This document shows positions 5,928 to 47,998 of a stretch of DNA of 64,000 bases, one piece after another. The stretch is from the NCBI GenBank assembly GCA_017416285.1, contig JAFQCU010000001.1, positions 26,556-90,555 of the forward strand, given 5' to 3'. This DNA comes from Clostridia bacterium. Its GTDB lineage: Bacteria > Bacillota > Clostridia > Oscillospirales > Acutalibacteraceae. Under the pieces are notes generated by a model. That model searched no databases and had not been told where the DNA came from. It was given only the letters and a program-made list of their open reading frames with translations. The translations under genes and the position numbers were made by a program. The first letter of the stretch is position 1. Each line of letters starts with the position of its first letter.

Positions 5928-5930
5928 AGC

Positions 5931-6596: not shown

Positions 6597-6633
6597 AAAA
6601 TAGTGCAAAAAAAGATAAGCTAGGTGGTAAAGA

Positions 6634-7137: not shown

Positions 7138-7167
7138 AAATTCTACATATAAATATTTAAATAAATA

Positions 7168-7195: not shown

Positions 7196-7239
7196 AGTAG
7201 TTGTAAAAAAATTAACAAACTTTGAAAGGATTGTTTCAA

Positions 7240-8451: not shown

Positions 8452-8460
8452 TTTTAAATT

Positions 8461-8482
8461 TGTAGGGCGGCAACGCCCTACA
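8461..8482 (+). promoter_or_regulatory. Intercistronic stem-loop with a GCAA tetraloop between pgk and tpiA
   Basis: TGTAGGGCG-GCAA-CGCCCTACA: 9-bp stem with a GNRA loop, followed only by TTTATGT (weak U tract). Confidence 0.45.
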
Positions 8483-8506
8483 TTTATGTAAAAGGAGATT
8501 TTAAAA

Positions 8507-9274: not shown

Positions 9275-9292
9275 TTTTAAGGTGACAGTATA

Positions 9293-10825
9293 ATGAAAAA
9301 ACCTATTGTTTTAACTATTATGGACGGCTTTGGCTTTAATCCAGAAGTAAACGGTAACGCAATCAAAGCCGCTAATACTCCCCGTCTTGATAATATCTTT
9401 GCTTCTTGCCCTACTACCGAAATTGGCGCTTCAGGTATGGACGTTGGTCTTCCCGACGGTCAGATGGGTAACAGCGAGGTTGGTCACACCAACATTGGCG
9501 CAGGCCGTGTTGTTTATCAGGAGCTTACCCGTATTACCAAATCAATCGCTGATGGTGACTTTTTCACAAACGAAGCATTTTTAAACGCTGTTGAAAACTG
9601 CAAAAAGAACAACAGCGCATTGCACCTTATGGGTCTTTTGTCAGACGGTGGTGTTCACTCACATATTGAGCATTTATATGCTTTGGTTGAGCTTGCAAAG
9701 CGCAACGGTCTTGACCGTGTTTATATTCACGCTTTGCTTGATGGCCGTGACGTGCCTCCCGCAAGCGCTGCTGACTTTATTGACGCTTTAAACAATAAGC
9801 TTAATGACCTTGACTGTGGCAAACTTGCAACTGTTTTGGGCCGTTTTTACGGTATGGACCGTGACAACCGTTGGGACCGTGTAAACAAGGCGTACGCCGC
9901 GTTGGTTTACGGTGAAGGCGTTAAGACTGATGATGCCGCCGCTGCTGTAAGATATTCTTACACACAGATTGATGAGGACGGCAAAAACATTACTGATGAA
10001 TTCGTACTTCCTACTATTGTCGAAGGTACTGAAAGAATTAAATCGGGCGACAGCGTAATATTCTTCAACTTCCGCCCTGACCGTGCACGTGAAATTACCC
10101 GCACATTTGTTGATGAGGCTTTTGACGGTTTTGAACGTGTTGGCGGCAAGCTTAACGTTTACTACGTTTGTATGACACAGTATGATGCTTCAATGCCTAA
10201 TGTTGAGGTTGCTTTCAAGCCCCAGTCATTGGTTAACACCCTTGGTGAATATTTAAGCGTTAAGGGTCTAAGTCAGCTTCGTATTGCTGAAACCGAAAAA
10301 TATGCTCACGTAACCTTCTTCTTTAACGGCGGTCGTGAGGTTATGTTTGAGGGTGAGGACAGAATTCTTGTCAACTCACCCAAAGTTGCAACCTATGACC
10401 TACAGCCCGAAATGAGTGCAAATGAAGTTTGCGATAAAGTTTGTGAAGCTATCGAAGCCGGCAAGTATGACGTTGTTATATTAAACTTTGCAAACTGCGA
10501 TATGGTTGGCCACACAGGCTTCTTTGATGCTGCTGTAAAGGCGGTTGAAACCGTTGATAACTGTGTTGGCAGAGTTCAAGACAGCGTTCTTAAAATGGGC
10601 GGTGTAATGCTTCTCACAGCAGACCACGGTAACGCTGATAAAATGCTCGACACCGATGGTTCACCCTTTACCGCACATACAACCTTCCCTGTTCCCTTTG
10701 CTGTTATTGGTAAGGATTGCGAACTTCGTGAAGGCGGTAAGCTTTGCGACATTTCGCCAACAATCATTAAGCTATTAGGTTTAGAACAACCCGCTGAAAT
10801 GTCTGGCGAATCAATAATTAAATAA
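9293..10825 (+). CDS. gpmI: 2,3-bisphosphoglycerate-independent phosphoglycerate mutase
   Basis: 510 aa. Motifs LTIMDGFG, GNSEVGHTNIGAGR, NFANCDMVGHTG and ADHGNAD. Confidence 0.95.
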   Translation: MKKPIVLTIMDGFGFNPEVNGNAIKAANTPRLDNIFASCPTTEIGASGMDVGLPDGQMGNSEVGHTNIGAGRVVYQELTRITKSIADGDFFTNEAFLNAVENCKKNNSALHLMGLLSDGGVHSHIEHLYALVELAKRNGLDRVYIHALLDGRDVPPASAADFIDALNNKLNDLDCGKLATVLGRFYGMDRDNRWDRVNKAYAALVYGEGVKTDDAAAAVRYSYTQIDEDGKNITDEFVLPTIVEGTERIKSGDSVIFFNFRPDRAREITRTFVDEAFDGFERVGGKLNVYYVCMTQYDASMPNVEVAFKPQSLVNTLGEYLSVKGLSQLRIAETEKYAHVTFFFNGGREVMFEGEDRILVNSPKVATYDLQPEMSANEVCDKVCEAIEAGKYDVVILNFANCDMVGHTGFFDAAVKAVETVDNCVGRVQDSVLKMGGVMLLTADHGNADKMLDTDGSPFTAHTTFPVPFAVIGKDCELREGGKLCDISPTIIKLLGLEQPAEMSGESIIK

Positions 10826-11232: not shown

Positions 11233-12048
11233 TTAAAGATCCAAAAAATCTTTTCTGTATTCTAAACCAAATGCATCTGCAACGGCTTTGAGTTCTTCAT
11301 CACGGATTGTATTAATGTGAGGCAAATGTGCTATTGACATATAAAGCTGTGCTGCCTTTTCAACAGTTTCAATAAGGCCGAAGGTTTCATCCATATCCTT
11401 ACCAGCGCCGTAAATACCATGAAGTCCCCAAACAACAAGGCGATATTCTTCCATCTTCTTGGCAGTTGCAATACCAATTTCGTTATTGCCGCAAACCATC
11501 CAAGGAAGCACACCAATACCATCAGGAAAAACAACGATACATTCGGTGCACATTTCCCAAATGGTGTGAGTGAACTTTTTATCATCAAGCTCGTGAATAT
11601 GTGTCATAGCGAGGGTTGCGGTGGGGTGTGTATGCATTACAACACGGTGGTTGGGGTCCTTCTTAAGTCTTGTCATATGGCTCATAAGATGGGCAGGAAG
11701 CTCACTTGTAAAACGACCGCCGTCCTTATATCCCCAAAGTAACTCTGCAGTAGTGCCGTCTTTAGCAATGCGGATAATACCAAGGTTGGTTTCAGGGTCA
11801 AATTCAACATTCTTGAAGTATTTGCCGGTACCTGTTACGATAAAGATTTTACCGATAAGGTCGGTCGCATCAAAACCAGTAGGAATAGTGCGGATAACTT
11901 TATCGAGGTCGAGATATTCGGCAACCTCATCGGTTTCAAGCATATAGCTTATGTTACCTCCGTTGCGTTCGTCCCAACCAAGGCGATACATATTAGCAGT
12001 TGTTTTCATCATTTCTTGCACAAATGGTGCGGTTAAAATATCTTTCAT
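11233..12048 (-). CDS. rhaD: Rhamnulose-1-phosphate aldolase
   Basis: 271 aa. N-terminus FVQEMMKTTANMYRLGWDERNGGNISYML and the HTHP metal motif. Last gene of the rhaB-rhaA-rhaD string. Confidence 0.85.
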   Translation of the reverse strand: MKDILTAPFVQEMMKTTANMYRLGWDERNGGNISYMLETDEVAEYLDLDKVIRTIPTGFDATDLIGKIFIVTGTGKYFKNVEFDPETNLGIIRIAKDGTTAELLWGYKDGGRFTSELPAHLMSHMTRLKKDPNHRVVMHTHPTATLAMTHIHELDDKKFTHTIWEMCTECIVVFPDGIGVLPWMVCGNNEIGIATAKKMEEYRLVVWGLHGIYGAGKDMDETFGLIETVEKAAQLYMSIAHLPHINTIRDEELKAVADAFGLEYRKDFLDL

Positions 12049-12049
12049 T

Positions 12050-13312
12050 TTAATTTCTCTCCTTTAAAATTTCAGTTTCATATTCTTTGACGGCTGCAAA
12101 CCATTCACCATCAACAGGGGCGCCGCATACCTTACAGTATTCAGCCCATACGTCACCAAAAGGCAAGGTTTTGAGTTCTTCCTGTTTGACCATAAGCTCG
12201 GTCCAGTTATCCTTATTTTGAATATCAGTAAGTTCAGCATTAGGTGTAAGTAATGCCATAAGCAATGCCTTTTGTACATTTCTAAATCCTACTGTCCAAG
12301 CAGATACACGGTTAATAGATGCATCAAAATAGTCAAGCGCAATTTTAACGCTACCTTCTAATCCGCCACAACGCACGATTTCCTTGCAAATTTCTTTTGT
12401 TTCGTCATCTAAAAGCACAACGTGATCGCTATCCCAACGAATAGGACGTGTAACATGAAGCGCAACTTCGGGGAAAAACGCAAGTAAAGCGGGTATTTTA
12501 TCAGACACAACTTCAGTTGGATGATAGTGACCGTTATCCATAAGCGGTATGCACTTATCTTTATTTGCAGCTGCATAAGAAAGTGAAAATTCCGCACTGC
12601 CAACTGTATATGCTTCAACACCGATACCAAAAACCTTAGATTCAACACAGGGCTTAACCTTATTAAAATCGAACGGTTCAGACAAAATTTCATCAATGGA
12701 TTCTTTATATCTAACACGTGGGCCCATTCTGTCAGCGGGAATATCCTTGAAACCGTCCCCTGTCCAGATGTTCATAACACATTCTTGTCCGAGTTCTTCT
12801 GCCAAGTACTGCGAAATTCTAATACAAGCTTTACCATGCTCAATCCAGAATTTTCTAGTTTCTTCGTTAGGGCTTGAAAGGGTTAAAGGGTCGCACTTGG
12901 GATGTGAGAAAAACGTAGGGTTAAAATCACAGCCAAGGCCGCGTTCTTTACAAAAATCCACCCATTTTTTAAAGTGCTTGGGCTCGATTTTATCTCTGTC
13001 AACCCAACCACCGTTTTCATCATCAAAAATAGCGTAACAGGCATGTAAATTAAGCTTTTTAGTGCCAGGGCAAAGCTTTAATACCATATCAATGTCTGCC
13101 ATTAGCTCTTCAGGAGTTCTTGCACGACCGGGATAATTACCTGTGGTTTGAATACCGCCCGAAAGAGCATCTACCTTTTGGTCAAAACCACGAACGTCAT
13201 CACCTTGCCAGCAGTGGAGTGCAATCGGCACCGATTTTAAGGCTTCGATAGCCTTGTCAGTATCAATTCCCCATTTTGCATAAATCTCTTTAGCTTCTAA
13301 ATATCTTGACAT
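12050..13312 (-). CDS. rhaA: L-rhamnose isomerase
   Basis: 420 aa. ALHCWQGDDV and the length are typical of RhaA. 1-nt TAATG overlap with rhaB. Confidence 0.9.
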   Translation of the reverse strand: MSRYLEAKEIYAKWGIDTDKAIEALKSVPIALHCWQGDDVRGFDQKVDALSGGIQTTGNYPGRARTPEELMADIDMVLKLCPGTKKLNLHACYAIFDDENGGWVDRDKIEPKHFKKWVDFCKERGLGCDFNPTFFSHPKCDPLTLSSPNEETRKFWIEHGKACIRISQYLAEELGQECVMNIWTGDGFKDIPADRMGPRVRYKESIDEILSEPFDFNKVKPCVESKVFGIGVEAYTVGSAEFSLSYAAANKDKCIPLMDNGHYHPTEVVSDKIPALLAFFPEVALHVTRPIRWDSDHVVLLDDETKEICKEIVRCGGLEGSVKIALDYFDASINRVSAWTVGFRNVQKALLMALLTPNAELTDIQNKDNWTELMVKQEELKTLPFGDVWAEYCKVCGAPVDGEWFAAVKEYETEILKERN

Positions 13313-14682
13313 TATTCTACCTCCTGAATATCAAATGTATTTATAACAATTTTTCTAGCCTCGGCTAAATCGATATCGTTATTGGTATACATCAGCTGTG
13401 CAATAAGATTGCCAATGGCAGTTCCCTCTGTCGGTCCAACGGTAACACGTCTTCCCGTATACTCTTTAGTGAGTTTATTGAGATATCTGTCCTTGCTGCC
13501 GCCGCCGACAATAGCAACACGGTCTACCCTTTTACCTGCAACCTGCTCAATTTCCTCAACGGTGTTTTTATAGCTTGTTGCAAGCGAAATATACACACTT
13601 TTTAGTACGTCACCAATAGGAAGCTCGGGCTCGCCAAGATAATTTCTTATAGCTTCAATCATATTTTCCGGTGCTAAGAAGCAATCATCTGTCGGGTCAA
13701 TAAGCTTATCGTAGCTGCTTTCCATTGCCATTTGCATCATTTCATCATAGGTATACTTCTTATCCAGATTTTTGCGAATATTTTGGAAAAGCCACATACC
13801 CATAATATTTTTAAGGAAACGGAATCGGTAATTTATACCGCCCTCATTTGAAAAGTTTGCTTCCATAGCGGCGGGTGTAGTAACAGGATAAAGGTTTTCG
13901 GTACCAACAAGGCTCCACGTACCTGATGAAATGAAAACTGAATTTTCATCCACAGGGCAAGCTGCAACGGCAGATGCGGTATCGTGGCTGGGACAAAAGA
14001 TGACCTTACTATCAAAGCCAACCTTTTCCTTGATTTCATCGGTAAAGTTTCCGATATATGTACTTGGCAAATTAAGCTCGCCAAAGATTTCAGCATTTAT
14101 GCCCAAAGCATCACACACCGATTTGTCAATCACTTTGTTTTCGGCATTTACAAGCCCTGTAGTTGAGGCGTTGGTATATTCATTTTTCATAACCCCTGTT
14201 AAGCGGTATGAAAGATATTCCGGCATCATAAGAAGGCGTTTAGCATTATTAAGCTTGCCGGTTTTTTTATCACACCAAAGCTGGAAAATGGTGTTATATG
14301 GTTGAATTTGAATACCTGTTTTTAAATAAAGTTCTTCTTTGCTTATTACAGCAAAAACCTCATCAACAGCCGTGGTAGTACGTGAATCACGATAAGAAAC
14401 ACAAGGCAATATTTCCTTATTGCTTCCGTCAAACAGCACGTAATCCACACCCCATGTGTCTATTGCCACGGTTTCAGGTATTTTGCCCATTTTTTTACAT
14501 TCGGCAATACCGCTTACAACGTCGCTTGTAAGCTTTTCAATATCCCAAATAAGTGTGCCATCCTGTTCTTTGAAACCATTTTCGAAACGGTAAATTTCGG
14601 TGGTTTCAAGACGACCGTTTTTGAGTTCACCCAAAATGTGACGACCGCTGGAAGCACCAATATCTATTGCTAAATAATACAC
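13312..14682 (-). CDS. rhaB: Rhamnulokinase (FGGY family)
   Basis: 456 aa. The AIDIGASSGRHILG ... IYRFENG ... WDIEKL pattern is characteristic of RhaB rather than FucK. Confidence 0.85.
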   Translation of the reverse strand: MYYLAIDIGASSGRHILGELKNGRLETTEIYRFENGFKEQDGTLIWDIEKLTSDVVSGIAECKKMGKIPETVAIDTWGVDYVLFDGSNKEILPCVSYRDSRTTTAVDEVFAVISKEELYLKTGIQIQPYNTIFQLWCDKKTGKLNNAKRLLMMPEYLSYRLTGVMKNEYTNASTTGLVNAENKVIDKSVCDALGINAEIFGELNLPSTYIGNFTDEIKEKVGFDSKVIFCPSHDTASAVAACPVDENSVFISSGTWSLVGTENLYPVTTPAAMEANFSNEGGINYRFRFLKNIMGMWLFQNIRKNLDKKYTYDEMMQMAMESSYDKLIDPTDDCFLAPENMIEAIRNYLGEPELPIGDVLKSVYISLATSYKNTVEEIEQVAGKRVDRVAIVGGGSKDRYLNKLTKEYTGRRVTVGPTEGTAIGNLIAQLMYTNNDIDLAEARKIVINTFDIQEVE

Positions 14683-26023: not shown

Positions 26024-26326
26024 TTACTCTTCGTTTTTCTTATCCAACTTTTTGTTTCTGAAATAAAGAATTAAATCAGCACCAACCATAATTAAATTTA
26101 AGAAATAGAAAAATAATACATACCATTTATCTGCAAACGATGCCATATAAGCTTCGTTCACAAACTTTGATATTATACCCGCAATGTAGCCAAAGAAAAT
26201 AAGGCACAAAAAGCCCAAACTTTTTCCCTTGGCAGTTCTCGCCTTATACGATTTAATTACATTCATCGGCCAAGACGCACCAAAGCTTAATATCATAACA
26301 ATTTCTAACAATTCTGACATTTTCAA
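26024..26326 (-). CDS. 100-aa three-TM membrane protein, PQ-loop/SemiSWEET-like
   Basis: Three hydrophobic helices. The loop after TM1, SWPMNVIKSYKARTAKGKS, resembles the PQ-loop motif with PM in place of PQ. Confidence 0.4.
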   Translation of the reverse strand: MKMSELLEIVMILSFGASWPMNVIKSYKARTAKGKSLGFLCLIFFGYIAGIISKFVNEAYMASFADKWYVLFFYFLNLIMVGADLILYFRNKKLDKKNEE

Positions 26327-26337: not shown

Positions 26338-26946
26338 TCAGTATTTCAAAATCTCGGTTTTGAATTTATCGACACTACCCTCGAAAAGTATTGTTTTTAT
26401 ACCGGCAGCCTGTGCACCAATGATATTATTTATTCTATCATCAATAAAAACGCTTTCCTCGCATTTTAAATTATAATGTCGCAACAAATAATTAAAAATT
26501 TCTTTATTAGGTTTGGTAATACCAAGCTCCGCTGAAAATACAAGACCATCAAACATATCTAAAACTTGTTTAATTTCAGGTACAGTATGGTAGCTTTCTG
26601 CAAATGTTTTACTAATGTTTGAAAGCAAATATAAATGTCCACCATTTGATTTGATTTCCCTCAAAATTTCGGGCATACCCTTAATAAACGGTACATTTTT
26701 ATACCAATTATCATACACAAGGCAAGCCTTTTGGTGTAACGCATTTGGTAAGCGGCTGCAAACGCCTTGCTTTACCTCATCATCAGTAATACTGCCCTCA
26801 TCAAGCTTATCCCAATAAAGTCGGTCAAAAACAACCTCTTCAACCAATTTGGCATCCTTATAATTTTTAACGTAAACCGAAGTCATATATTCCGTATCAA
26901 ATTTAACTAAAACCTCGCCAAAATCAAATATGTAGTTCTTAACCAT
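26338..26946 (-). CDS. HAD-IA hydrolase, YihX-like (sugar-phosphate phosphatase type)
   Basis: Motif I YIFDFGEVLV (as in YihX, DLGNV), motif II LLSN, motif III TKPN, motif IV FIDDR. 8-nt overlap with the activase gene. Confidence 0.65.
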   Translation of the reverse strand: MVKNYIFDFGEVLVKFDTEYMTSVYVKNYKDAKLVEEVVFDRLYWDKLDEGSITDDEVKQGVCSRLPNALHQKACLVYDNWYKNVPFIKGMPEILREIKSNGGHLYLLSNISKTFAESYHTVPEIKQVLDMFDGLVFSAELGITKPNKEIFNYLLRHYNLKCEESVFIDDRINNIIGAQAAGIKTILFEGSVDKFKTEILKY

Positions 26947-27701: not shown

Positions 27702-28352
27702 TCAATACTTGATTTCAAAATTTATACCACTAACGCCACATACAGCGCCACCGTCTTTAAGCTCTTTATTATCAACGTGGGCAATCATCCACTTGTTTTT
27801 TGCCCATAAAAGCTTATCAGCATATTCACCGTCAAGAGGTGTATTTGTTCCCTTGGGAAGCGCAACAACCCAGCCAAATCCTTCAGAATTGGCTTCACAG
27901 GGACCATAGTGCAAGGTTGTGGCGTAACATTCTAAAACTGTGCCTGCGGGCACGTAAAATGCCTTAAATTTTGAAGAATCAATTTTATTATCCTTAACGT
28001 CCCACAAGTGACCAACAATAATTACAAGATCAGTTACTGCAATATTAATTTCACTTGAAGTGTGCCATTCGGTTGCGTTAAAGAAGTTGTTTCTACCCCA
28101 ACAGTAACCGATTTGAGTATCCATTTCACCGAAAAAGCGAATTCTTATTTCATCAGCTATTGCAAGCTTTTCAAATTCATCAACGCTTGGTTTATAAGCT
28201 GAGCCGCTTTCGGGATTGGCAATTTTCTTGGCTTCATTAACGATTTCGGTAATATCTACACCATCGATTATTCTACCAAACGAGTTAAACTCATCCGAGC
28301 AAACGTCAAAAAATTCCAATTCAGGATTTAATTTTTTCAATTTTTCTAACAT
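27702..28352 (-). CDS. DUF4867-like protein (cupin/ureidoglycolate-lyase-like?), function unknown
   Basis: ~217 aa starting at MLEKLKKLNPELEFF (ATG 28352, SD AAGGGTGA). The ORF-track N-terminal extension would overlap the GRE. The DUF assignment is from memory of the family. Confidence 0.55.
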   Translation of the reverse strand: MLEKLKKLNPELEFFDVCSDEFNSFGRIIDGVDITEIVNEAKKIANPESGSAYKPSVDEFEKLAIADEIRIRFFGEMDTQIGYCWGRNNFFNATEWHTSSEINIAVTDLVIIVGHLWDVKDNKIDSSKFKAFYVPAGTVLECYATTLHYGPCEANSEGFGWVVALPKGTNTPLDGEYADKLLWAKNKWMIAHVDNKELKDGGAVCGVSGINFEIKY

Positions 28353-28365: not shown

Positions 28366-30351
28366 TTATACTGTATATGCCTGTCGTGCAATAACGTGGT
28401 CTTGATATTCCTTATCAAGTTCAACAAAGTATGCACTCCAACCCCAAATTCTAACCACTAATTGACGGTGATTTTCGGGATGTTTTTGAGCATCCAGCAT
28501 CTTATCAAGATTAACAGTATTAAGCTGTAGCTGGTGACCGCCACGATCAATAAAGTTTTTAACAAGTAAGCCCACTTTTTCAATACCATCATCATCGGAA
28601 AATACGCTTTGATGGAATTCAAGAGTTAGCGGTCCGCCGTTCATAGCATTTTCAAAATGCTGCTTAGTCATTGAAGCCACAACCGAAACCGGACCCTTTA
28701 CCTTTGCAAAAAGCGATACGGAATAATTGGTGCCAAAGGGTTCTTTTTCTCTTCTGCCGTCAGCAGAAGCACCAATTTCATTTGCGTGCCAAAGATAATA
28801 CATCGCACTGCCGGTACCCGCTCTGAAAATACCGCCACGGCAATTTTTTCTACCCTTGAGAGCGTTACCAAAGGCATCCAAAAGGTCAGTAGCAATACTG
28901 TCTACGAAATCATCATTATTGCCAAGTTTGGGCGCTTCATAACGTAGTTTGTGAAGCAATTCAGGAGTATTTTCAAAATTGCTGTCTACTGCTGAAATCA
29001 GTTCCGCCTTACTAATGCTTTGTTCTTCAAAAACATATTTCTTAATAGCGGCAAGGCTGTCAGCAGCGGTAGCAATACCCGTACCGTGAATACCAAAATT
29101 ATTGTATTTGCCGCCATTATAAATATCGCAGTCCATAAGCACGTTCATAAAGGGTGACGGAACAAACCACAAATCCTTTATGTTATCGCAAATGCTGTCA
29201 CATTCCTTGTTAATTTCGTTCTTTACGCTTGTGAAAAATTCTTCGTAAGAATTAGATGACAAAAGATTATTGTGTAATGCTATATCAACCGCTTTAGGAT
29301 AAGACATAGCGCTTATATTAGCAACGTCAGCGCCTATAAATGGAACTATAAATTCCCAACAAGCTGCCACTGCATAATTGGTTGCATCCTTATAATCATA
29401 TCCCATTTCAACAAGTGCCGGTATAACCACATCATCATTAGAATATTGTGGGAAGCCAAGACCCGCTTTAGTAAGCTTTGTAGCTTCGGTATAACGGTCA
29501 GCGGGTGTATTTTTAGAAACCCTCAAATTGATTTTTGGGTCAATCATTTTATTATTGCAAGAAGCTTTTAAGCAAAGCTCTGACAAGAAATTATAAACGT
29601 CATTTCCCTCTTCATCACAACCGCCAAGCATCATACTTTGACCGTTATCACCTTGCTGAACGCCAACGTAAATATCACTGTCAATATTAAAGGATAAGAA
29701 GAAATCCTCCAACAATTCAAGTGCTGTATCGGCAGTATAAACGCCGTTATCCATGTCTGCTCTAAGATACTGATACATATATCTGTCAAAACGACCGATT
29801 GTATTATGATAATTGCCTTCAAGCCACAACGCATAATGCAAAATGCGGAAAAACTGCAAAGCTTCACGGAAATTACGTGCCGGATAACGTGGCACCTGAG
29901 TTAATACCTCAACCAAATCTTCTCTGCCCTGTTTTTTAGCTTCTTCTAAATACTTATCCGAAAGCGCAATAATACTATCAATAGCTTTTTTACCATATTC
30001 ATCGGCAGATTCACGCTTTTTCAAAAGACCTGCGGCAATTGTATCGTAATAATTGGGTGATAAGTTCGATAAAAAGCCAAGCTCGTGTATGTAATGCTTT
30101 GATTCAATTTCTTTCCACTCTTCATCTGTGAAAATTTTAGGAATATTAGAAACCGTACGCAAAAATACAATTTGTTGACCTTCTAAAATTACAGCCTTTT
30201 CTTCCTTGCAAAGCTTATCCAAGCGATCGGTCATACGTTCAATAGGCGATAAACCCTTTTGGGAATATTCGCTTGCCAAATCCCAATCAACGACATGACG
30301 AAACTCATGATGTTCTTTATTTAAAATAAAGCTATACAAATTCTTATTCAT
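28366..30351 (-). CDS. Compact glycyl radical enzyme (PFL-fold, Cys-x-Glu eliminase-type active-site loop)
   Basis: 661 aa. C-terminus LDAQKHPENHRQLVVRIWGWSAYFVELDKEYQDHVIARQ (Gly637 = nt 28441-28443). Cys loop YAVAACWEF (Cys331 = nt 29359-29361). Also GQSMMLGG and DPKINLRVSKNTP blocks. SD AAAGGGGA. Confidence 0.85.
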   Translation of the reverse strand: MNKNLYSFILNKEHHEFRHVVDWDLASEYSQKGLSPIERMTDRLDKLCKEEKAVILEGQQIVFLRTVSNIPKIFTDEEWKEIESKHYIHELGFLSNLSPNYYDTIAAGLLKKRESADEYGKKAIDSIIALSDKYLEEAKKQGREDLVEVLTQVPRYPARNFREALQFFRILHYALWLEGNYHNTIGRFDRYMYQYLRADMDNGVYTADTALELLEDFFLSFNIDSDIYVGVQQGDNGQSMMLGGCDEEGNDVYNFLSELCLKASCNNKMIDPKINLRVSKNTPADRYTEATKLTKAGLGFPQYSNDDVVIPALVEMGYDYKDATNYAVAACWEFIVPFIGADVANISAMSYPKAVDIALHNNLLSSNSYEEFFTSVKNEINKECDSICDNIKDLWFVPSPFMNVLMDCDIYNGGKYNNFGIHGTGIATAADSLAAIKKYVFEEQSISKAELISAVDSNFENTPELLHKLRYEAPKLGNNDDFVDSIATDLLDAFGNALKGRKNCRGGIFRAGTGSAMYYLWHANEIGASADGRREKEPFGTNYSVSLFAKVKGPVSVVASMTKQHFENAMNGGPLTLEFHQSVFSDDDGIEKVGLLVKNFIDRGGHQLQLNTVNLDKMLDAQKHPENHRQLVVRIWGWSAYFVELDKEYQDHVIARQAYTV

Positions 30352-30371: not shown

Positions 30372-32306
30372 TTAAAGTGTTATTTCATATACAGCGGCTG
30401 TAAGTGGTTTGGAAGCCTTAAAGCTAACCTTACCGTCAGCCAATGAAATACTTTTGTCATCGTTAATACACGGATATATTTCACTAATAGTGCCATTTGA
30501 AAATTCTTTTGGCACTTCAAAGCTTATTTCATCTTCGCCACCATTGCGGAAAATACCAAGTCTGATTTTGTTGGCATTTTTTAAGGCTAAAACGCTGTAT
30601 CCTTTTGTATAAACCTTTTGCTGCTCGCCAATAAACACAGGCATTGCACCTAAAAGAAAATTTCGATTTTGCTTATAAACATCAATTCCCTTTTTGATAA
30701 GCGAAAGATTATAATCATCACATTTTTCAATGTGACCTGACAATGTCATTATTCCAAAAAATGCACACGACATGTTAAAAATTGTTTGCTGACCATCTGC
30801 CATTTGCTTGTAATATTCATCAGTATATGCTGAATTAATATCTAAACGGTGAGCATAGGTTGCAGGGAATGGAAAGCTCCAAATACCCATTTTTTCAGGA
30901 ATCATACAGCCCTGCATACCACGGATTATCGATGGGTTGTTTGTGAAGATTTCCTGATCGCTTGTGCTTTGCAAATGGAAATGCTTTAAAGTTCCGTTAT
31001 CACAGCGCATTGCTCCGCTTCCGCAGTTTTCAATAACCAAATCGGGCATATCCTCCATAAGCTTATCGATAAACTTGAAGAAGTTGTTGTTATTATCAAT
31101 TAACGCCGCTGCAAATGAACCTTCGCCATCACAACCGACACCCGTACTATGATTATAGTCGTTCTTAATGTAACGAATACCCATATCATAAAGATGCTTT
31201 ACTCTGCCGTATAAATAATCGGTAACTTCCTTGCATCCAAAATTTAAAAACTGTCTTTCTTCACCAATAGGCAAGCCACAACGAGTAAGTATTGCATCAG
31301 GTGAAATTTTGGAAATTGAAGTGTAACAAAATGCAGTTTCAAGCTCAAGCCATATACCGGGAATCATATTTTTAGATTTGATATATTCAATAATTGATTT
31401 GAATCCGCCTTCACCAAAAATGGCATCGTTTTCAATCCAATCACCAAAATCGGTTCCATTACCATTGCGAATAAACCAACCGTCATCTATACAGAAAAGC
31501 TCTGCGCCAACATTTGCGGCTGCATCAATAAGCGGTATAAGCTTTTCACGGCTTGGCATTGCCCACAAGCAGTTCATATAATCGTTAAAGCAAACCGTAA
31601 GCTCATCCAACTTTTTGCCGTTTTTACGCTTGTATTTTAAAAGCGATAATACAGCTTCATCAAAGCTTTCTGCCTCACCGTAAAGAACTGCTGGAGTTTC
31701 ATAACCCTCGTTCGGCTCTAAAACCTTATAAAAACCGTTATTATTTTCACTTGTAGCGGTACAATCAACACTTAGAGTGCAAACACCGTTATCACCCACA
31801 GTACCAAGCTCGAAAGACCAATTAGCAGATGCTTCTAATTCAAAGTACCATGCTTTTTTATCAGTCTTATCCTCAATAATTAAAATTGGATAATACTTAT
31901 GTGTTGACCAACTACCAGTACTTGAAATTGTTTTATCAATATGGGAGAAAGCATGCTTTGCAACAGGGTAAATACCAAGCTGGTACGGTGTAAGCGTTGT
32001 CCATTGTGCCTCACCCTGCCAAGCAAAATTACAAATATGTATAAGCACTTCCCTGTTATGAAAATCGGGAGCTATGTTTTCAAGATAAAGCGAACTAATA
32101 TGTGATACACGTAAGGGTTTATCGGTTATATTGTAAATAACATTGCTTCTTTTAGTAACGCCGCTTTCTTTACAGTATACTGATTTTTTATCAACACTAT
32201 ATTTTAAAAGATCAAGTCTTTTTTCGCCATCTCTTTCAGGTATGTTTTTTATCATACTTGCCGCAACGTTTGAGCCGTTATCAACAATAACCTTAAAATC
32301 TTTCAT
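30372..32306 (-). CDS. GH36 family alpha-galactosidase-like enzyme
   Basis: 644 aa. Motifs FCIDDGWF, YIKNDYN and ENCGSGAMRCD correspond to the GH36 catalytic blocks. Confidence 0.7.
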   Translation of the reverse strand: MKDFKVIVDNGSNVAASMIKNIPERDGEKRLDLLKYSVDKKSVYCKESGVTKRSNVIYNITDKPLRVSHISSLYLENIAPDFHNREVLIHICNFAWQGEAQWTTLTPYQLGIYPVAKHAFSHIDKTISSTGSWSTHKYYPILIIEDKTDKKAWYFELEASANWSFELGTVGDNGVCTLSVDCTATSENNNGFYKVLEPNEGYETPAVLYGEAESFDEAVLSLLKYKRKNGKKLDELTVCFNDYMNCLWAMPSREKLIPLIDAAANVGAELFCIDDGWFIRNGNGTDFGDWIENDAIFGEGGFKSIIEYIKSKNMIPGIWLELETAFCYTSISKISPDAILTRCGLPIGEERQFLNFGCKEVTDYLYGRVKHLYDMGIRYIKNDYNHSTGVGCDGEGSFAAALIDNNNNFFKFIDKLMEDMPDLVIENCGSGAMRCDNGTLKHFHLQSTSDQEIFTNNPSIIRGMQGCMIPEKMGIWSFPFPATYAHRLDINSAYTDEYYKQMADGQQTIFNMSCAFFGIMTLSGHIEKCDDYNLSLIKKGIDVYKQNRNFLLGAMPVFIGEQQKVYTKGYSVLALKNANKIRLGIFRNGGEDEISFEVPKEFSNGTISEIYPCINDDKSISLADGKVSFKASKPLTAAVYEITL

Positions 32307-32396: not shown

Positions 32397-33224
32397 TTAT
32401 TTTCTGCGTTTTTCATTGCCACCGTTTGCTATACGATATTCTTCCGGTGTAACACCATAATATCGCTTAAACACACGGTGAAAATAGCTCTTGTGGTTAA
32501 AACCAACTTCATATCCTATATTTTCAATACTCTTTGTAGTTTCAACCAGCATTTTTTGAGCAGTTTCAAGCTTTCTTAGATTTATATATTCACTAAGATT
32601 TTGACCGATGTTCTTTTTAAATAATTTAGAAAAATAAGGGAAATTATAACCTGAAAAAGCCGCTACCGAACTTGGTGTCACAGTTTTCAAATTATTATCA
32701 ATATATGTCAAAATTGTTCTGACATCTATTGTAGCAACCTTGCTGCTTTCTAAAGTGCTTCGGTTAATGCGTATTAGTAATGCAAATAATACCTCCAAAC
32801 AACCCTCTATTACGTCTGAGAATAAGTCGTTTTGATCATTAAATTCCTTTTCAATCATAAAAAGAATATTTTCAATTCTTCTTATTTCGTTGGGAGGAAT
32901 ATTAATAATACTCACCGGACCAAATTCATCGGCGTGCTCTTTAAATATTTGGGGTAACGAAGTAGGCTTAATTTGAATTCTGAAAACCTCGACCTCATTA
33001 GAAGTGTCAAACCTATGACGTGAATCTGGATTAAACAAGCTCATACACCCACGAGAGCACTCGTAGGATTCATCCTTTACGTTTTGATGATAGCTGCCTG
33101 ATAAAACGTATTCCATTTCATAATACACATGAGCATGAACATTAACACCATAAGACGTTTTATACCGACTTATGGAATATTTTTTATCATTCTCAATGAA
33201 TGCAACTGGCCAATGGCATATCAT
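32397..33224 (-). CDS. AraC family transcriptional regulator (cupin sensor + 2x HTH)
   Basis: 275 aa. The C-terminus, IGYEVGFNHKSYFHRVFKRYYGVTPEEYR, is the AraC signature. Confidence 0.85.
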   Translation of the reverse strand: MICHWPVAFIENDKKYSISRYKTSYGVNVHAHVYYEMEYVLSGSYHQNVKDESYECSRGCMSLFNPDSRHRFDTSNEVEVFRIQIKPTSLPQIFKEHADEFGPVSIINIPPNEIRRIENILFMIEKEFNDQNDLFSDVIEGCLEVLFALLIRINRSTLESSKVATIDVRTILTYIDNNLKTVTPSSVAAFSGYNFPYFSKLFKKNIGQNLSEYINLRKLETAQKMLVETTKSIENIGYEVGFNHKSYFHRVFKRYYGVTPEEYRIANGGNEKRRK

Positions 33225-42697: not shown

Positions 42698-45600
42698 TTA
42701 ATTCTTCTTGCGCTTTTTAGCCAAAATAACAATTAAAACAACGGCTGCAGCGCCAACAACAAGCACGCCACCAATAATTGAAAGAACAATTACAAGCACG
42801 CTGGGGCCAACCCATTCTCTTGTAATGAGATACTTCTTATTGTTTGTGCCTTCGCTTCCCTCTTCAACAAGAACCTCTTCGGTAATTACTTTATCAGGGA
42901 AAGCAATCGGGTCGGTTTCTTGGAAAGCAGTCTTATAATCACCATAGGTGTTCGGGTCAACCTTAAAGCCACGTTCAGCAACAAAAATTTCAACCATATC
43001 AAGCTCTAAGGTACCCTTAGTACCCTTAATTACGAGATATGCATCCTTGCTGCTGCCAGAATTAAAGCTGAAGTTTACACGGTTCCACTTGCCGTCATCC
43101 TTCATAGGAAGCTTGCCGGTTTCACCGTTCTTAATGTTTTCAAATACAGTATATTCGCCGTCGCTATAAAGTCCTACGGTAATATCGCTGCCCTTTGAAA
43201 GCTTAGTCCAAGCTGCAAAGGTGTAGTTTTTATTCTGCTTAGAAAGCGGAATAACTCTTACGTATTCTTTGCCGTTAGATGCAGCGGCATCAAACTTGAA
43301 CTGGTAATTCTGTTGCCAGTCATGTTCCTTGTTGGTTACCTTTTCTACTGTTGCGCCGTCAGTTAACGGACCCCAGTTTTCGTTGGTAACTTCTTCTTCA
43401 AAGTGAGAGTTTGAAACCTCATTAAAGAATTTTTCGGTATACTTAAGGTTTTCAAAATCGGGTGTGCGTTCTACAAGTTCAACACGGTCAATGTATATAT
43501 CGTCGACCGAAGCACCTTCGTTACGGTTTGCATGGAACTTACAAATCTGGAAGCAGAAACCGTCTTTGTCGGTATGGTCCTTAGTAACAGTACCTAAAAG
43601 ATACTTGTACCAACCGTTATTTTCTTCTAAAGCAGAAGCTTTTTGAGGTTTAATGTTAGTTGAAACACCGATATATGCATATTCGCCTGATTGAAGCATA
43701 TCCGACTGGTCGCGGGTATTTGAACCAAGGAATGCATAATAGTAAACGTTTTCTGCCGGCTGTGCAGGCTTAATCCAAACGTATACGTCATAGGTGTAGT
43801 CATCCTTCATCTGGAATTCCTTGTTAGAAACTACGGGGAAGAAAATACTGGTTTCAATACTTTCCATAATCTTACCGGGTTTAGCGTGAAGTGATTGTTT
43901 GCCTTCTAATACGTTCTTAGGATCATTAACAATTTCATAATATTCGAAACCGATATCGCCAAGCTCGTAATCTTCAAAGCCCTGAACAATAACTGTACCG
44001 GGTTTTGCCTTACCGCTAAAGCGTGCTTCAAGCTTATGATTATCGCTAATGTCGTTTAAACGATAGGTCTTATTGGTAGAAACCAAATCACCGTATTCGT
44101 ACCAACCTTCAAAGGTAGCGCCTTCAAATGCGTTAGCAACTACTCTTGCATCATCACCTGCTTGAACACCGAAGGACTTGGTAACAGTACCGAGTGTTGC
44201 ATCGTTAGGTGAGGTTTCAATTGAATACTGTTCAGTTAAAGTGAAATTATCGAACCACATGGTTCTGGGTTCACTACTGTCATTAACGTCATAAATTACC
44301 AACTTAAAGTATTGCGCATTAGGAACAACCTCGCCCGTTGTAAGAGTAAAGGTTACGGTATTCCAGCCACGTGTTCCAACATTGTTGATAAATGACCACT
44401 GAGTATCTGAACCCATACCAAGGTTCTTTTTATCGTAACCAAACGCTGCTGCATAATCGGTAAACGGAGCTTCAACATAGTAGTCAAGCGAAACCTTATA
44501 GGTCGTATTTGACTTCATCTTTATACCCTTAAAGACATAGGTTTGGTTAGAGTTTTTAGAAGTATTAGTGTATTCGGTAGCATTAACAACCTTAAAGGTA
44601 CCGCCCTTTTCGCTTGAGTGCTCGAATACAGCTTCTGCTTGCTTAAAGTAAGGATAGATTGAATCGTCCTTATCGTCAAAGGTAAGTTTGGTAACTACCT
44701 TATTGTTATCGATTTCGGTTTCTTCAACGGTAAAGTCATCAAAGAATACCCAAGCATCTGGGTTGAGAACAAGCTGGAACCAATCAGCCGAAGCGTTTGT
44801 AATATTACCTGTTGAGAATACTACCTTAACCTCGGTCCAACCGTCGGCATTATTTTTCTTAAACCAGGTAACGTCATTTGCTTTACCGAGAGCAGATTCG
44901 ATAAACTTAACACCAAAAAGGTTTAACTCACCGCTTGCGGTGGGATTTGCCTGATAGTATTTAAAGATAAGCTTATATGTTTTGTTCTTTTCAAGAGTGA
45001 GGGGGCTCTTAGCACCGCCGAGAGTAATCGACGCACCGTCCTTACCTGCCTTCCCCTTTAAAATAGCGATTTCAAGACCGCTTAAGTTGCCCGAAGGAAC
45101 GTAATCAGGGTCAATCTTAGCAGGAAGCTTAACAACAGTTGCACCAGCTGAGGTTTTACCTTCGTTGGTTTCATCAAAGGTTAAACGGGCCACTTCGGTA
45201 TCACCATCGTATACACAGAAGTTATCAAGATAACCCTTAAAGCCGGCGCCTACGTATAAGGTATGATAAGCAAGGGCTTTATCACCTGTCGGAGTAAAGT
45301 TAACCGACTGGGTTGCCCATTCGTTAAGCTTGTCAGAGGTATCCCACCAATTTTGGCCGGTGATACCGCCACCTGTGTTATGAACACCAACATAGCAGTG
45401 ACCTTTAAAGCTTTCATTAAGTGCATAGTTATCAAACTTTAAGGTATAAGTCTTACCGGGGGTAAGAGACATTTCGGGAACACCCAAAAGGTTAAACCAA
45501 ATTTGACCTGATTGAATATCATTAGCTGAGTTATCAATATAAATCGCATAATTCGGTTCAGAAGGTTTAACTGTCGTATTGTTGGTTTTTTCTTTTTCAA

Positions 45601-47998
45601 GCTTAAGATAATTGTTATAATCATCTTTTTTAATAGTAAGACCGCTAAAGTTAGTTTCGGTACCTTCTACTACATTGCCTTTATCGTCAAGAAGCTTAAA
45701 GTTATCGATATAACCCTTAAAGCCGCCGTAAACGTAAAGAATGTGGTTACCGCTTTTAGCACCGTCAGCAATAGTGATTGTGCTTGTAGTGGTTTGCCAA
45801 GTGTTAAGTTGTAAATCAGGTTTCCACCAGTTACCTTGAGTTGAACCATTTGCCTGACCGCTTGCAGTACGGAAGTGGAAAAGATTAGAACTGTTAGGCA
45901 TCTTGATAGGATAAACGTCAAAGCTTACGGTATAGGTCTTACCTGCTTGAAGCTTGTTGTAATAGCTTTCCATACCCAATTCGTTGAACCAGAAGTTTCT
46001 GTTATCACTGCCGTTGTCAGAAACCTTTGTGGTATCGATAAGCATTACGTAGTTATCCTCAGCTTCGCTTGAACCGCCTAAGTCACCAATATTGGGAACG
46101 TCGCCAACAGTGATTTTTTCAAATTCACAGGTTGTACGACCTACGTATGAAGCGAAATCTAATTCAGTACCGTCTTGTGTGAGCTCAACGTTCCAAATAT
46201 AAAGCTCATCAGCACCATCTCTTTCTGCTAACCAAAACGAAGGAGAGTTCACACTTAATTCGAAGCTGTTTACACCTGCTTGAAGGTTTCCGGCTTCATT
46301 TCCATCACTAGAACCATAAACTTTAATTCTACCACTTTTAAGATAGTAGTCAAATTTTATAGTAGCTTTATACGCCTTACTGCTATCATAACTTGTGCGG
46401 AACGCTTCACCTGAATCGAATGTCATTTTATACGCAGGTGCAGTTAAATCAACTGCACTGCCGCTGCCGCTATTGCCTGAATTGTTGTCAGGTTCTTCAT
46501 AATTTGCACCGGGAATATCTGCGAAAGAAATTTCTTCAAATTCACAAGTGGTACGGTCGGTTCTGTTAGCCATCTTGGCAGGGTTGCCATCGGTAACAAT
46601 CTTAACGTTCCAAATATAAATTACTGCATTTTCGGTTGCAGTTAATTTAAGAGATTTGGTGTTTTTATCAGCTGTAAAGGTATGACTTCCAACACCGGGG
46701 GTAAGCTCGGTATCAAGGTTGCCAACGTTAGCTGAACCTGCAGTAACCTTGCCCTTTGAAAGATAATAATCAAAGCTATAAGTAATTTTATCGTTGCAAG
46801 GAGTATCAGAAGTTCTGAAAATTTCGTCCTTGTCCATAGTAAGTTTATATGCAGGATATGTTTTAGCCACAATTTCCTTAGGTAATTCAACAATCTTTGC
46901 ACCGTTACTTACATTATTAAGATGGGTTTCATCAATATTAAACGAGAATATTACAGTACCTGTCGCATCCTTAACCTTAAAGTTATCTAAATAACCTTTG
47001 AATGCAGAATTACCTTCGCTTATAATATGGAAATAAACACCTGCTAAATTTTCGGTTGTAGTAATTGGGAATGAATAATGTGTCCATTCATTTAACTTTG
47101 TAGGTGCTTCATTCCATACCTGACCGTTGGGAATTGCATGGTCGGTATTCATATGTGCTTTAACGCCGTTAAATACAACTCTATGACCTAAAGTAAGCGC
47201 ATAAACGTCAAACTCTACAGTATAGGTGTTGCCTTTCACAAGTGAAAGACCTTGCATACCAAGTGAGGTAAGCCAAAAGCTGTTGCTGCTTGAATTATCA
47301 AAGTAGGCAACATAGTCGGGTTCGCCGTTAAATGAGGGGCCTGTTGGCTTCATGCTGCCGCCTGCAAGCTGAGCAAGAGTACCGTATGCGAATACACCGC
47401 CGCCGCTGTAGCTGCCGCATGCTGTAGCCAAATCAAGATTAACCTTCTTGCCGTCTTCGCCGATAATTGAAAAATCTTCAATTAAAGCACTTGCAGAGGT
47501 GAAAGCTGAAAAATCAAGTTTATCACTTCCCTCTTTTGCGGTAAAGGTAAAATGGAAATTAGTCCATTCTTCAGCAGAAGCATTGTCATTAGTAGCAAAA
47601 GCTTCTACCGATGCTTCATTACCGCCGTATACCTTAATACCGAACATTTTGCCGTCGCTTGCCTTAGAAAGACCCATGGCATAAATATCCATATCTACGG
47701 TATACTTTTTGCCCGCTTGGAGCTGTAATCCGTTTACTGTAAGGGTTACAGTTTCTTCAGTAGCATTGCTTGCGTAAAAATAAAGTTTATCTGCATTATC
47801 TTGACCACCGATTGTAAAGTGGTCGTTACCGTCTACGATATCGCCGGCATCTTCGCCTTGGAAATCAATAATCTCGCCTTCTGCAGCATTTACGTTAAAA
47901 AGCAATGCGCTTAAAGGCAAAGAAGCCATCAAAATCGCAACGGCACATAAAACACTTATAATTTTTTTAGTGTTTAAATTCAAAAATTTAAAATTCAT
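42698..47998 (-). CDS. 1766-aa cell-surface multi-CBM-like glycan-binding protein with a C-terminal TM anchor and no recognisable catalytic domain
   Basis: Signal peptide aa 1-38. About 10 beta-sandwich modules end in [GW][YF][LIF]D[ND]F-type motifs, as in CBM4_9/22-like domains. One InlB-B/Listeria-Bacteroides-type repeat spans aa 1262-1327. TM helix (nt 42722-42805) plus a KKRKKN tail. No LPXTG. Confidence 0.7.
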   Translation of the reverse strand: MNFKFLNLNTKKIISVLCAVAILMASLPLSALLFNVNAAEGEIIDFQGEDAGDIVDGNDHFTIGGQDNADKLYFYASNATEETVTLTVNGLQLQAGKKYTVDMDIYAMGLSKASDGKMFGIKVYGGNEASVEAFATNDNASAEEWTNFHFTFTAKEGSDKLDFSAFTSASALIEDFSIIGEDGKKVNLDLATACGSYSGGGVFAYGTLAQLAGGSMKPTGPSFNGEPDYVAYFDNSSSNSFWLTSLGMQGLSLVKGNTYTVEFDVYALTLGHRVVFNGVKAHMNTDHAIPNGQVWNEAPTKLNEWTHYSFPITTTENLAGVYFHIISEGNSAFKGYLDNFKVKDATGTVIFSFNIDETHLNNVSNGAKIVELPKEIVAKTYPAYKLTMDKDEIFRTSDTPCNDKITYSFDYYLSKGKVTAGSANVGNLDTELTPGVGSHTFTADKNTKSLKLTATENAVIYIWNVKIVTDGNPAKMANRTDRTTCEFEEISFADIPGANYEEPDNNSGNSGSGSAVDLTAPAYKMTFDSGEAFRTSYDSSKAYKATIKFDYYLKSGRIKVYGSSDGNEAGNLQAGVNSFELSVNSPSFWLAERDGADELYIWNVELTQDGTELDFASYVGRTTCEFEKITVGDVPNIGDLGGSSEAEDNYVMLIDTTKVSDNGSDNRNFWFNELGMESYYNKLQAGKTYTVSFDVYPIKMPNSSNLFHFRTASGQANGSTQGNWWKPDLQLNTWQTTTSTITIADGAKSGNHILYVYGGFKGYIDNFKLLDDKGNVVEGTETNFSGLTIKKDDYNNYLKLEKEKTNNTTVKPSEPNYAIYIDNSANDIQSGQIWFNLLGVPEMSLTPGKTYTLKFDNYALNESFKGHCYVGVHNTGGGITGQNWWDTSDKLNEWATQSVNFTPTGDKALAYHTLYVGAGFKGYLDNFCVYDGDTEVARLTFDETNEGKTSAGATVVKLPAKIDPDYVPSGNLSGLEIAILKGKAGKDGASITLGGAKSPLTLEKNKTYKLIFKYYQANPTASGELNLFGVKFIESALGKANDVTWFKKNNADGWTEVKVVFSTGNITNASADWFQLVLNPDAWVFFDDFTVEETEIDNNKVVTKLTFDDKDDSIYPYFKQAEAVFEHSSEKGGTFKVVNATEYTNTSKNSNQTYVFKGIKMKSNTTYKVSLDYYVEAPFTDYAAAFGYDKKNLGMGSDTQWSFINNVGTRGWNTVTFTLTTGEVVPNAQYFKLVIYDVNDSSEPRTMWFDNFTLTEQYSIETSPNDATLGTVTKSFGVQAGDDARVVANAFEGATFEGWYEYGDLVSTNKTYRLNDISDNHKLEARFSGKAKPGTVIVQGFEDYELGDIGFEYYEIVNDPKNVLEGKQSLHAKPGKIMESIETSIFFPVVSNKEFQMKDDYTYDVYVWIKPAQPAENVYYYAFLGSNTRDQSDMLQSGEYAYIGVSTNIKPQKASALEENNGWYKYLLGTVTKDHTDKDGFCFQICKFHANRNEGASVDDIYIDRVELVERTPDFENLKYTEKFFNEVSNSHFEEEVTNENWGPLTDGATVEKVTNKEHDWQQNYQFKFDAAASNGKEYVRVIPLSKQNKNYTFAAWTKLSKGSDITVGLYSDGEYTVFENIKNGETGKLPMKDDGKWNRVNFSFNSGSSKDAYLVIKGTKGTLELDMVEIFVAERGFKVDPNTYGDYKTAFQETDPIAFPDKVITEEVLVEEGSEGTNNKKYLITREWVGPSVLVIVLSIIGGVLVVGAAAVVLIVILAKKRKKN
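46103..46858 (-). repeat. Diverged tandem duplication of a ~113-aa module inside the giant surface protein (aa 381-495 and 520-632)
   Basis: Both copies share AYK.T.D..E.FRTS, FDYYL, YIWNV and RTTCEFE.I. They are separated by an NSGNSGSGS linker. Confidence 0.6.

Follow-up and report, generated by a model that had tools for sequence, protein, structure and literature searches.

The window analyzed here, a 64,000-nucleotide stretch of contig JAFQCU010000001.1 from a Clostridia bacterium of the Acutalibacteraceae, contains a minus-strand gene for a glycyl radical enzyme (GRE) of 661 amino acids (aa). Along that strand, the genes run in the order AraC regulator, GH27/36-type glycosidase, GRE, DUF4867 cupin, activase, HAD phosphatase, PQ-loop protein, and GH78 rhamnosidase (Table 1). 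The GRE belongs to a group, here called the WGW clade, in which the radical Gly lies between two Trp residues; this clade is uncharacterised, widespread, and tied to carbohydrates. As described below, its sequence and predicted structure are best explained by a functional, compact enzyme that would retain the full GRE fold, and the carbohydrate context is the main clue to its function.

Table 1. Features of the GRE gene and its neighbors in the window (residue numbers refer to the encoded proteins)
Feature	Position	Strand	Basis
Compact GRE, WGW clade, 661 aa	28366..30351	minus	Open reading frame and translation, Pfam, AlphaFold2, Foldseek
Cys loop AACWEF, aa 329-334, with C331 (predicted thiyl radical site), W332, and E333 (CXE glutamate)	29350..29367	minus	Translation; aligned with GCVE of glycerol dehydratase
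Glycyl radical loop RIWGWSAYF, aa 634-642, with G637 between W636 and W638	28426..28452	minus	Translation; aligned with RVAGYSA of 1r8w
N96, where eliminases have a general-acid His (glycerol dehydratase H164)	30064..30066	minus	Alignment block
GDNGQ loop, aa 234-238, a shortened polar loop in place of the glycerol dehydratase Y339 loop	29638..29652	minus	Five-residue deletion in phmmer alignment
GRE-activating radical S-adenosylmethionine (SAM) enzyme, 259 aa	26939..27718	minus	NCBIfam TIGR02494, 252 bits (cutoff 174)
DUF4867 cupin metalloprotein, 216 aa from ATG, between GRE and activase	27702..28352	minus	Pfam DUF4867, E = 4.4e-71
HAD-family phosphatase, GRE operon	26338..26946	minus	Pfam/NCBIfam HAD-IA
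GH27/36-type intracellular glycosidase (melibiase-like), directly upstream of GRE	30372..32306	minus	Pfam Melibiase
AraC-family regulator with cupin ligand-binding domain	32397..33224	minus	Pfam HTH_18, HTH_AraC, AraC_binding

Sequence, diagnostic motifs, and predicted fold

The GRE open reading frame (ORF) is intact, starting with ATG and preceded by a GAAAGGGGA ribosome-binding site. Its product matched the Pfam families PFL-like (PF02901; 283.7 bits, cutoff 24.3, E = 4.7e-84) and Gly_radical (PF01228; 69.9 bits, cutoff 22.2, E = 3.2e-19). Among NCBIfam models, the best match was TIGR01774, the PFL2/glycerol dehydratase family, whose cutoff of 678.2 bits lies far above the 298.8 bits obtained, and no NCBIfam equivalog came near its own cutoff. 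When PDB sequences were searched by phmmer, glycerol dehydratase (GDH) 1r8w was the best match (E = 3.9e-72), with query residues 119-659 aligned to residues 222-785. In this alignment, C331-W-E333 fell on C433-V-E435 and R-I-W-G637-W on R-V-A-G-Y. C331 and G637 were thus correctly located in the original prediction, which was made from the letters of the window alone, but the third block that it named, GQSMMLGG, spans aa 237-244 and starts one residue later than the 236-244 given there.

The CXE motif is common to all eliminase and isomerase GREs (PMC13450708), and it is present here in single-Cys form as C331-W332-E333. The Cys-Cys pair of pyruvate formate-lyase (PFL) is absent, the sequence being A-A-C-W, and the PFL model TIGR01255 scored 79.9 bits against a cutoff of 994. 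The loop had been described as eliminase-like rather than PFL-like, and its alignment with GCVE agrees with this, extended to the isomerases. For comparison within the superfamily, we used the 106 nearest representatives at 50% identity, of which at least 90% keep C331.

The glycyl fingerprint of GREs is RVXG[FWY], so that Trp is permitted at Gly+1 (PMC11528403). R634-I-W-G637-W638, near the C-terminus, conforms to it with a conservative Ile for Val, and the WGW clade itself has Val in 22 and Ile in 11 members at this position. At Gly-1, the 46 representatives without Trp there contain Ala (24), Thr (9), Ser (5), or His (4), and Trp is unusual. A loop thought to be atypical on both sides of the radical Gly is therefore atypical at one position, Gly-1. 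A stricter PROSITE-type pattern, which we take to call for [CSA] before the Gly, does not match the GRE. Aminoacyl radical enzymes, in which Ala, Ser, or Thr replaces the radical Gly, are a different case, as G637 is present and near-invariant.

Two further sites differ from the known dehydratases. The general-acid His (H164 in GDH, H166 in propanediol dehydratase (PD), and H160 in HypD) is replaced by N96. This position, in a G-H-x-x-P-D-Y segment, is His in 43 of 46 other representatives, and it is Asn in all 33 WGW representatives as well as in 77/77 genome and 73/75 metagenome members of the clade. Because of this exchange, the GRE is not simply a smaller glycerol, propanediol, or hydroxyproline dehydratase. 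In the sequence alignment, Y339 and Y640 of GDH, which we take to be its glycerol-binding residues, are not kept either; the Y339 segment is deleted and Y640 falls on G514.

Next, the length of the protein was examined. Against 1r8w, the GRE has ~103 fewer residues N-terminally and ~23 fewer over the remainder, ~126 in all. Comparison with 31 classical representatives, each 770 aa or longer, gave a median of ~101 missing residues before query residue 139, namely 13 at the N-terminus, ~57 between residues 68 and 91, 20 at 117/118, and 11 at 138/139. Later losses were confined to small loops, with medians of 4 at residue 230, 15 at 361, 5 at 394, and 6 at 407. Both comparisons bear out the early estimate, made by eye, of ~100 residues missing before the Cys loop and ~25 after it.

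The AlphaFold2 model built on the diverse 106-sequence alignment had a mean predicted local distance difference test (pLDDT) score of 95.9 and a predicted template modelling (pTM) score of 0.94. This result depends on alignment depth, since 41 close homologues (81-99% identity) gave a pLDDT of 61 and a poor barrel. Foldseek superposed the model on all solved eliminase and isomerase GREs with query-normalised TM scores of 0.83-0.90 (more than 40 chains), the matched families being GDH, CutC, PD, HypD, PflD, and YbiW. Every one of the solved PFL-like chains matched by fold has at least 764 residues, and the claim that a GRE of 661 aa is unusually short holds. In the model, the ten-stranded β/α barrel with its central Cys and Gly loops is kept, and the predicted losses fall in the N-terminal periphery and in loops.

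A widespread clade in carbohydrate loci

The protein database contains more than 120 clusters at 81-99% identity to the GRE, nearly all of 659-664 aa. Relatives of 650-700 aa were found in at least 553 species genomes, with one genome taken per species, and the best 80 of these, 61-88% identical and full length, were examined. A metagenome scan based on a more distant branch yielded at least 572 further stretches, whose sources were human gut, bioreactors, sludge, and sediments. Hosts of the best 80 genome relatives are mostly rumen and gut Clostridia (Acutalibacteraceae, Oscillospiraceae, Lachnospiraceae, and Erysipelotrichaceae), and Ructibacterium gallinarum DSM 107454 and strain 1xD8-48 are among the cultured ones.

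Trp precedes the radical Gly in 59 of the 106 representatives, whose median length is 689 aa versus 787 aa for the others. W-G-W together with AACWEF and GDNGQS occurs in 33 representatives of 641-709 aa, and W-G-F with CWEP and GDTGQ occurs in 23-25. The WGW group, taken together with two degenerate members, was monophyletic by neighbour joining, and 40/40 bootstraps recovered it even after the motif columns had been left out, as expected of the distinct compact clade that had been proposed. A single clade of all proteins with Trp at Gly-1 was recovered in 0/40 bootstraps and was rejected; the WGW group alone forms a clean split. The two degenerate members, P0129 and P0166, are nested in the WGW clade and have the Cys loops AAGSCF and SSRGEP and a degenerate Gly loop; they may be pseudo-enzymes or sequencing artefacts. 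PDB entry 9rco was considered as a member with Trp before the Gly and rejected, as it is a PD, and an 815-aa representative with this Trp had no close PDB match. For the WGW clade, neither a solved structure nor a published description was found in the literature searched, including GRE papers of 2025-26, and the June 2026 review of the GRE superfamily lists no such enzyme. The possibility that many characterised GREs share this length and these loops fails.

Across the 77 genome and 75 metagenome members compared, the near-invariant residues are N96, H182, Q232, D235, N236, Q238, N275, Q302, and Y303 in the N-terminal half; C331, W332, E333, F334, D342, N345, N418, and H422 from the Cys region onward; and R510, T513, G514, Y519, G573, P574, T576, E578, W636, G637, and W638 in the C-terminal part. 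C331, W332, and E333 are kept in 76/77 genome and 73/75 metagenome members. The signature is polar and largely non-basic, with an acidic charge balance (D235, E333, D342, and E578, a Lys being replaced by Glu at 578).

Gene neighbourhoods were then compared. The activase directly adjoins the GRE in 67-73 of the 80 genome loci and in 58/79 metagenome loci. AraC regulators, often divergent, are present in 33/80 genome loci and make up 21 of 88 upstream genes. These two are the sole recurrent partners in the 80 genome loci, that is, in the branch 61-88% identical to the GRE, and no conserved dehydrogenase, kinase, or aldolase was seen among the loci examined. Rarer neighbors were GH36/raffinose-synthase-like proteins (15), LacI regulators (9), DUF4867 (7), and HAD (1). 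Like the GRE of the window, those of the 80 genomes sit in loci of carbohydrate-active enzymes (CAZymes) with AraC regulators.

A second branch of 688 aa, 44-48% identical to the GRE, carries the same signature. Its neighbors include a Sugar_tr transporter of the major facilitator superfamily (MFS) in 27/80 loci, an aldose 1-epimerase (mutarotase) in 19/80, and a CUT2 monosaccharide ATP-binding cassette (ABC) system in 6; at least one of the three was present in 22 of the 37 loci with at least 3 kb of flank. Some operons are compact, for example GntR followed by activase-GRE-MFS-epimerase, and in locus L088 a glycosidase-MFS-GRE-activase set is flanked by housekeeping genes.

Several single loci are richer. 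Locus L081 (GRE 63% identical) has FBA-II, GRE, activase, a second FBA-II, a FucI_C-type isomerase, and an FGGY kinase in a single operon. In L084, an iron-type alcohol dehydrogenase (Fe-ADH) adjoins a 47% identical relative, together with NagA/NagB. In L019 (positions 783-7916; GRE 77% identical), a class II ketose-bisphosphate aldolase, a PfkB kinase, and an IolB (5-deoxy-glucuronate isomerase) equivalog scoring 219.6 bits against a cutoff of 205 lie alongside the GRE, followed by an aldose epimerase, DUF4867, an FGGY kinase, and a fused beta-alpha electron-transfer flavoprotein. This context hints at a deoxy-sugar-acid route, and the flavoprotein is perhaps a dedicated electron donor for the activase. 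Separately, in ~16 metagenome loci (L127-L141), the gene immediately downstream of the GRE, on the other strand, encodes a 1302-aa protein without a Pfam match and is followed by conserved ORFs of 122 and 202 aa of unassigned function and an aldose epimerase.

In the window itself, the activase has a CX3CX2C motif at residues 34-41 and eight further Cys at residues 60-89. It is short, with a compressed auxiliary-cluster insert, other PFL2-type activase models having a profile length of ~290-310 aa, and its TTG start overlaps the DUF4867 stop. DUF4867 carries E95-x-H97-x3-E101 and H148, matching the metal ligands in the SqvB structure, and the family is a proposed ring/anomer isomerase (PMC11968277). 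Its listed ORF starts at a GTG (to 28436) and overlaps the end of the GRE; the ATG at 28352 is the likelier start. An obligate partnership with the GRE was rejected for DUF4867, which adjoins it in 7/80 loci, and a partnership was likewise rejected for the HAD phosphatase, which adjoins the module in 1/80. The best NCBIfam match of the GH27/36-type glycosidase was beta-L-arabinopyranosidase NF053652, with 201.9 bits, below the cutoff; a homologue lies near the GRE in 8/80 loci. Just downstream of the HAD gene, a 100-aa ORF (26024-26326, minus), also present in L001, showed a weak PQ-loop match under the Pfam cutoff (E = 8.6e-4) and is possibly a SemiSWEET-type sugar transporter.

This operon lies inside a one-directional array of ~50 kb. 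Besides intracellular glycosidases and esterases, the array contains an ABC sugar transporter together with the genes for L-rhamnose and L-fucose catabolism. The window carries RhaA and FucI, two class II aldolases, an FGGY kinase, an alpha-L-fucosidase, and the GH78 rhamnosidase. The array starts with a complete L-rhamnose set (class II aldolase, RhaA, and FGGY kinase; 11233-14682, minus), and a pgk-tpi-gpmI glycolytic operon (7222-10825, plus) lies just upstream of it on the opposite strand. Large unexplained genes surround the ABC transporter (42698-47998, 51409-55742, and 57576-60425, all minus), including a 1766-aa ORF, a DUF5696 protein, an NHL-repeat/Yip1 membrane protein, and a 949-aa protein with a solute-binding domain.

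Proposed radical chemistry and its alternatives

Taking sequence, model, and context together, we give an even chance to the proposal that the GRE is a radical 1,2-eliminase or isomerase acting on a free neutral sugar. The substrate would most likely be a free, uncharged reducing monosaccharide in a defined ring or anomeric form, because the signature is polar and mostly acidic and because free-sugar transporters, a mutarotase (or DUF4867), and glycosidase loci accompany the clade. Since the CXE loop and the activase point, together with the nearest folds, to the standard GRE relay, we infer the following reaction. The 259-aa activase would place a radical on G637, from which it would move to C331, and the C331 thiyl would take a hydrogen from a substrate carbon that bears a hydroxyl. 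E333 would deprotonate the hydroxyl on that carbon, and the resulting ketyl radical would expel the oxygen substituent of the neighboring carbon, by 1,2-elimination or ring C-O cleavage, before C331 gives the hydrogen back. The glycosidases of the window would release the substrate sugar inside the cell, and the DUF4867 cupin would possibly provide its correct form.

Two outcomes are plausible. Abstraction at C1 with loss of the 2-OH would yield a deoxy-keto sugar or a 2-deoxy-aldonolactone, and abstraction at C2 with C1-O cleavage would yield a ketose or a 1,5-anhydroketose. The lactone-forming reaction, with C1-H abstraction and 2-OH loss, is known from carbohydrate radiation chemistry. Galacto-configured sugars (D-Gal and L-Ara) are weakly suggested as substrates by the neighboring glycosidase families. 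The earlier suggestion of a dehydration or C-X elimination is plausible in that it fits the CXE motif and the nearest predicted folds, and isomerase-type C-O cleavage, as in PflD/YbiW, would fit them equally well.

Several points weigh against a free-sugar substrate. The putative pocket residues derive from alignment with the pockets of known GREs. In the 61-88% branch of the window GRE, a mutarotase occurs in 2/80 loci and the transporter in 0/80, the activase and AraC regulator alone recurring, and the sugar inference is therefore partly carried over from the 44-48% branch. With the eliminase general-acid His replaced by Asn, the leaving-group chemistry is not clear-cut. Invariant R510 is a possible binding site for an anionic group. 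The kinases, aldolases, and IolB equivalog of L081 and L019, and the HAD phosphatase of the window operon, would suit a phosphorylated or cyclitol-derived substrate. Furthermore, the need for a radical enzyme acting on common sugars is not obvious.

Some of these points favor other substrates. The best surviving alternative, in our view improbable, is that the substrate is a non-reducing carbohydrate derivative in which the GRE would break a C-O bond, the candidates being a cyclitol (myo-inositol or pinitol), an O-methyl sugar (with loss of methanol), or a glycoside or glyceryl glycoside. The enzyme would then serve as an accessory remover of decorations in glycan-degrading loci. Consistent with this, the GRE-activase(-AraC) module stands alone within highly variable CAZyme loci, where it adjoins esterases (GDSL/SGNH, DUF4886, and SASA) and, in 15/80 loci, the GH36/raffinose-synthase-like genes; the IolB equivalog, kinase, and aldolase beside the GRE in L019 and a polar pocket signature suited to a polyol agree with it. 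However, the mutarotase association of the sister branch points towards a reducing sugar, and Iol-type genes occur in one locus only.

We rank next, and consider unlikely, a PflD/YbiW-like isomerase or eliminase whose substrate would be a phosphorylated (anhydro- or deoxy-) sugar and whose product would pass to an aldolase. The top TM scores of PflD, the L081 and L019 gene sets with their FBA-II, FGGY kinase, FucI_C-type isomerase, PfkB, and IolB, the HAD phosphatase, and invariant R510 all speak for it. Nevertheless, the PflD equivalog NF007437, whose cutoff is 1109 bits, scored 244.3 bits, kinases and aldolases occur in just 2-4 of 173 loci, and no phosphotransferase system genes were seen in the loci. 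The recurrent partners are instead free-sugar transporters and a mutarotase, an enzyme for reducing sugars that carry no phosphate, and the acidic charge balance of the signature is likewise unfavorable to a phosphate.

A minimal, non-encapsulated 1,2-propanediol or glycerol dehydratase, its diol coming from L-fucose or L-rhamnose via lactaldehyde or from glyceryl glycosides, comes third and is also doubtful. GDH 1r8w and the PDs 5i2g and 9rco are the best sequence and fold matches, the window contains the L-rhamnose and L-fucose genes listed above, and Fe-ADH adjoins the relative in L084. These fucose and rhamnose genes are, however, not conserved over 160 related loci, and genes for a microcompartment, aldehyde dehydrogenase, or 1,3-propanediol dehydrogenase do not recur. 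The exchange of H164 for N96 (33/33), the deleted Y339 loop, G514 at Y640, and the shortfall against TIGR01774 also argue against it, as does a strongly polar signature that is unlike what we take to be the character of the propanediol pocket.

Finally, a truncated or degenerate remnant without catalysis, to which the ~126-residue deficit against GDH and the lack of Cys and Gly in P0129 and P0166 might point, is very improbable and fails as an explanation, given an intact ORF with ribosome-binding site and cognate activase, the retention of C331, E333, G637, and R634 in hundreds of same-length orthologues of a widespread, full-length clade, and a confident full-barrel model with the whole GRE fold whose deletions map to the N-terminal periphery and loops.

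Significance and comparison with known GREs

Radical chemistry on a free neutral sugar, the favored proposal, would have consequences beyond this locus. Each newly assigned GRE function opened a new anaerobic pathway, as for choline to trimethylamine (TMA), hydroxyproline, isethionate, and anhydro-sugars. Whole GRE clades are still without validation according to the 2026 review. The WGW clade stands out in that it spans hundreds of species of human gut, ruminant gut, and bioreactors, lies in carbohydrate loci, has the smallest PFL-type scaffold in our comparison with an altered radical site, and lacks the usual eliminase acid; a cultured host, R. gallinarum DSM 107454, exists. If it acts on free sugars or glycan decorations, anaerobic glycan use would gain a class of radical enzymes, and mechanistic and engineering studies would have a small, tractable GRE to work with. 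A broader proposal, which we advance tentatively and hold to be rather less than likely, is that WGW enzymes are the first GREs on unphosphorylated free sugars, that their W-G-F sisters perform related sugar radical chemistry in polysaccharide biosynthesis, and that both form a carbohydrate-dedicated branch. A WGW enzyme would then, for example, dehydrate an aldopyranose by anomer-specific radical chemistry, with a 2-deoxy-aldonolactone or 1,5-anhydroketose as the product. If true, this would provide a redox-neutral, ATP-independent entry to sugar catabolism in gut, rumen, and digester anaerobes, and the superfamily would have a carbohydrate branch with its own compact scaffold and Trp-flanked radical site.

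Among known systems, GDH of Clostridium butyricum (1R8W/1R9D) and the PDs 5I2G and 9RCO are top fold matches, with TM scores of 0.86-0.89. They share with the GRE the PFL-type barrel, the single-Cys CXE loop, the C-terminal glycyl loop, and an adjoining PFL2-type activase. The GRE, however, is ~126-180 aa shorter and 24-30% identical, and has Asn for H164, GDNGQ in place of the Y339 loop, Gly at Y640, and Trp rather than Ala at Gly-1; no diol-pathway or microcompartment genes recur alongside it. CutC (choline TMA-lyase) and HypD (hydroxyproline dehydratase) are of the same fold class (TM 0.85-0.89) and have the CXE motif, but identity is 22%, their equivalog models scored 224 against 1050 and 279 against 1100, respectively, the residues at the H164/D216 position are different, and no Cut or Hyp context genes were found.

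To our knowledge, PflD and YbiW are the only characterised GREs acting on sugars, and we know of no GRE that acts on free sugars. These two are isomerases that open the ring of 1,5-anhydro-hexitol-6-phosphates, and they gave the top TM scores to the model, 0.89-0.90 (8yjo/8id0). Like the GRE, they have a CXE loop, and they abstract hydrogen at a carbinol carbon before C-O cleavage (PMC13450708). They differ in length (765-810 aa) and in having phosphorylated, non-reducing substrates, whereas the WGW clade is tied to free-sugar transporters, mutarotase, glycosidases, and AraC regulators.

The W-G-F sister GREs, also uncharacterised, are closer in motif, with Trp before the radical Gly, a CWE Cys loop, and a GD(T/N)GQ loop in proteins of 664-815 aa, but they are 29-35% identical, have Phe after the Gly, and show a different pocket signature. 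Three look-ups of W-G-F GREs of 693-742 aa with their activases (L089/L090, 7001-9082; L092, 1641-3869; L093, 7001-9127) all led to polysaccharide biosynthesis loci, with neighbors including Wzx flippase, Wzz, GT2/GT4 glycosyltransferases, nucleoside diphosphate-sugar epimerases and dehydratases, UDP-galactopyranose mutase, and pyruvyl transferase. In the 2026 review, glycan biosynthesis is not among the roles described for GREs. The W-G-F enzymes thus lie in biosynthetic loci in 3/3 cases, unlike the WGW clade, whose loci are catabolic.

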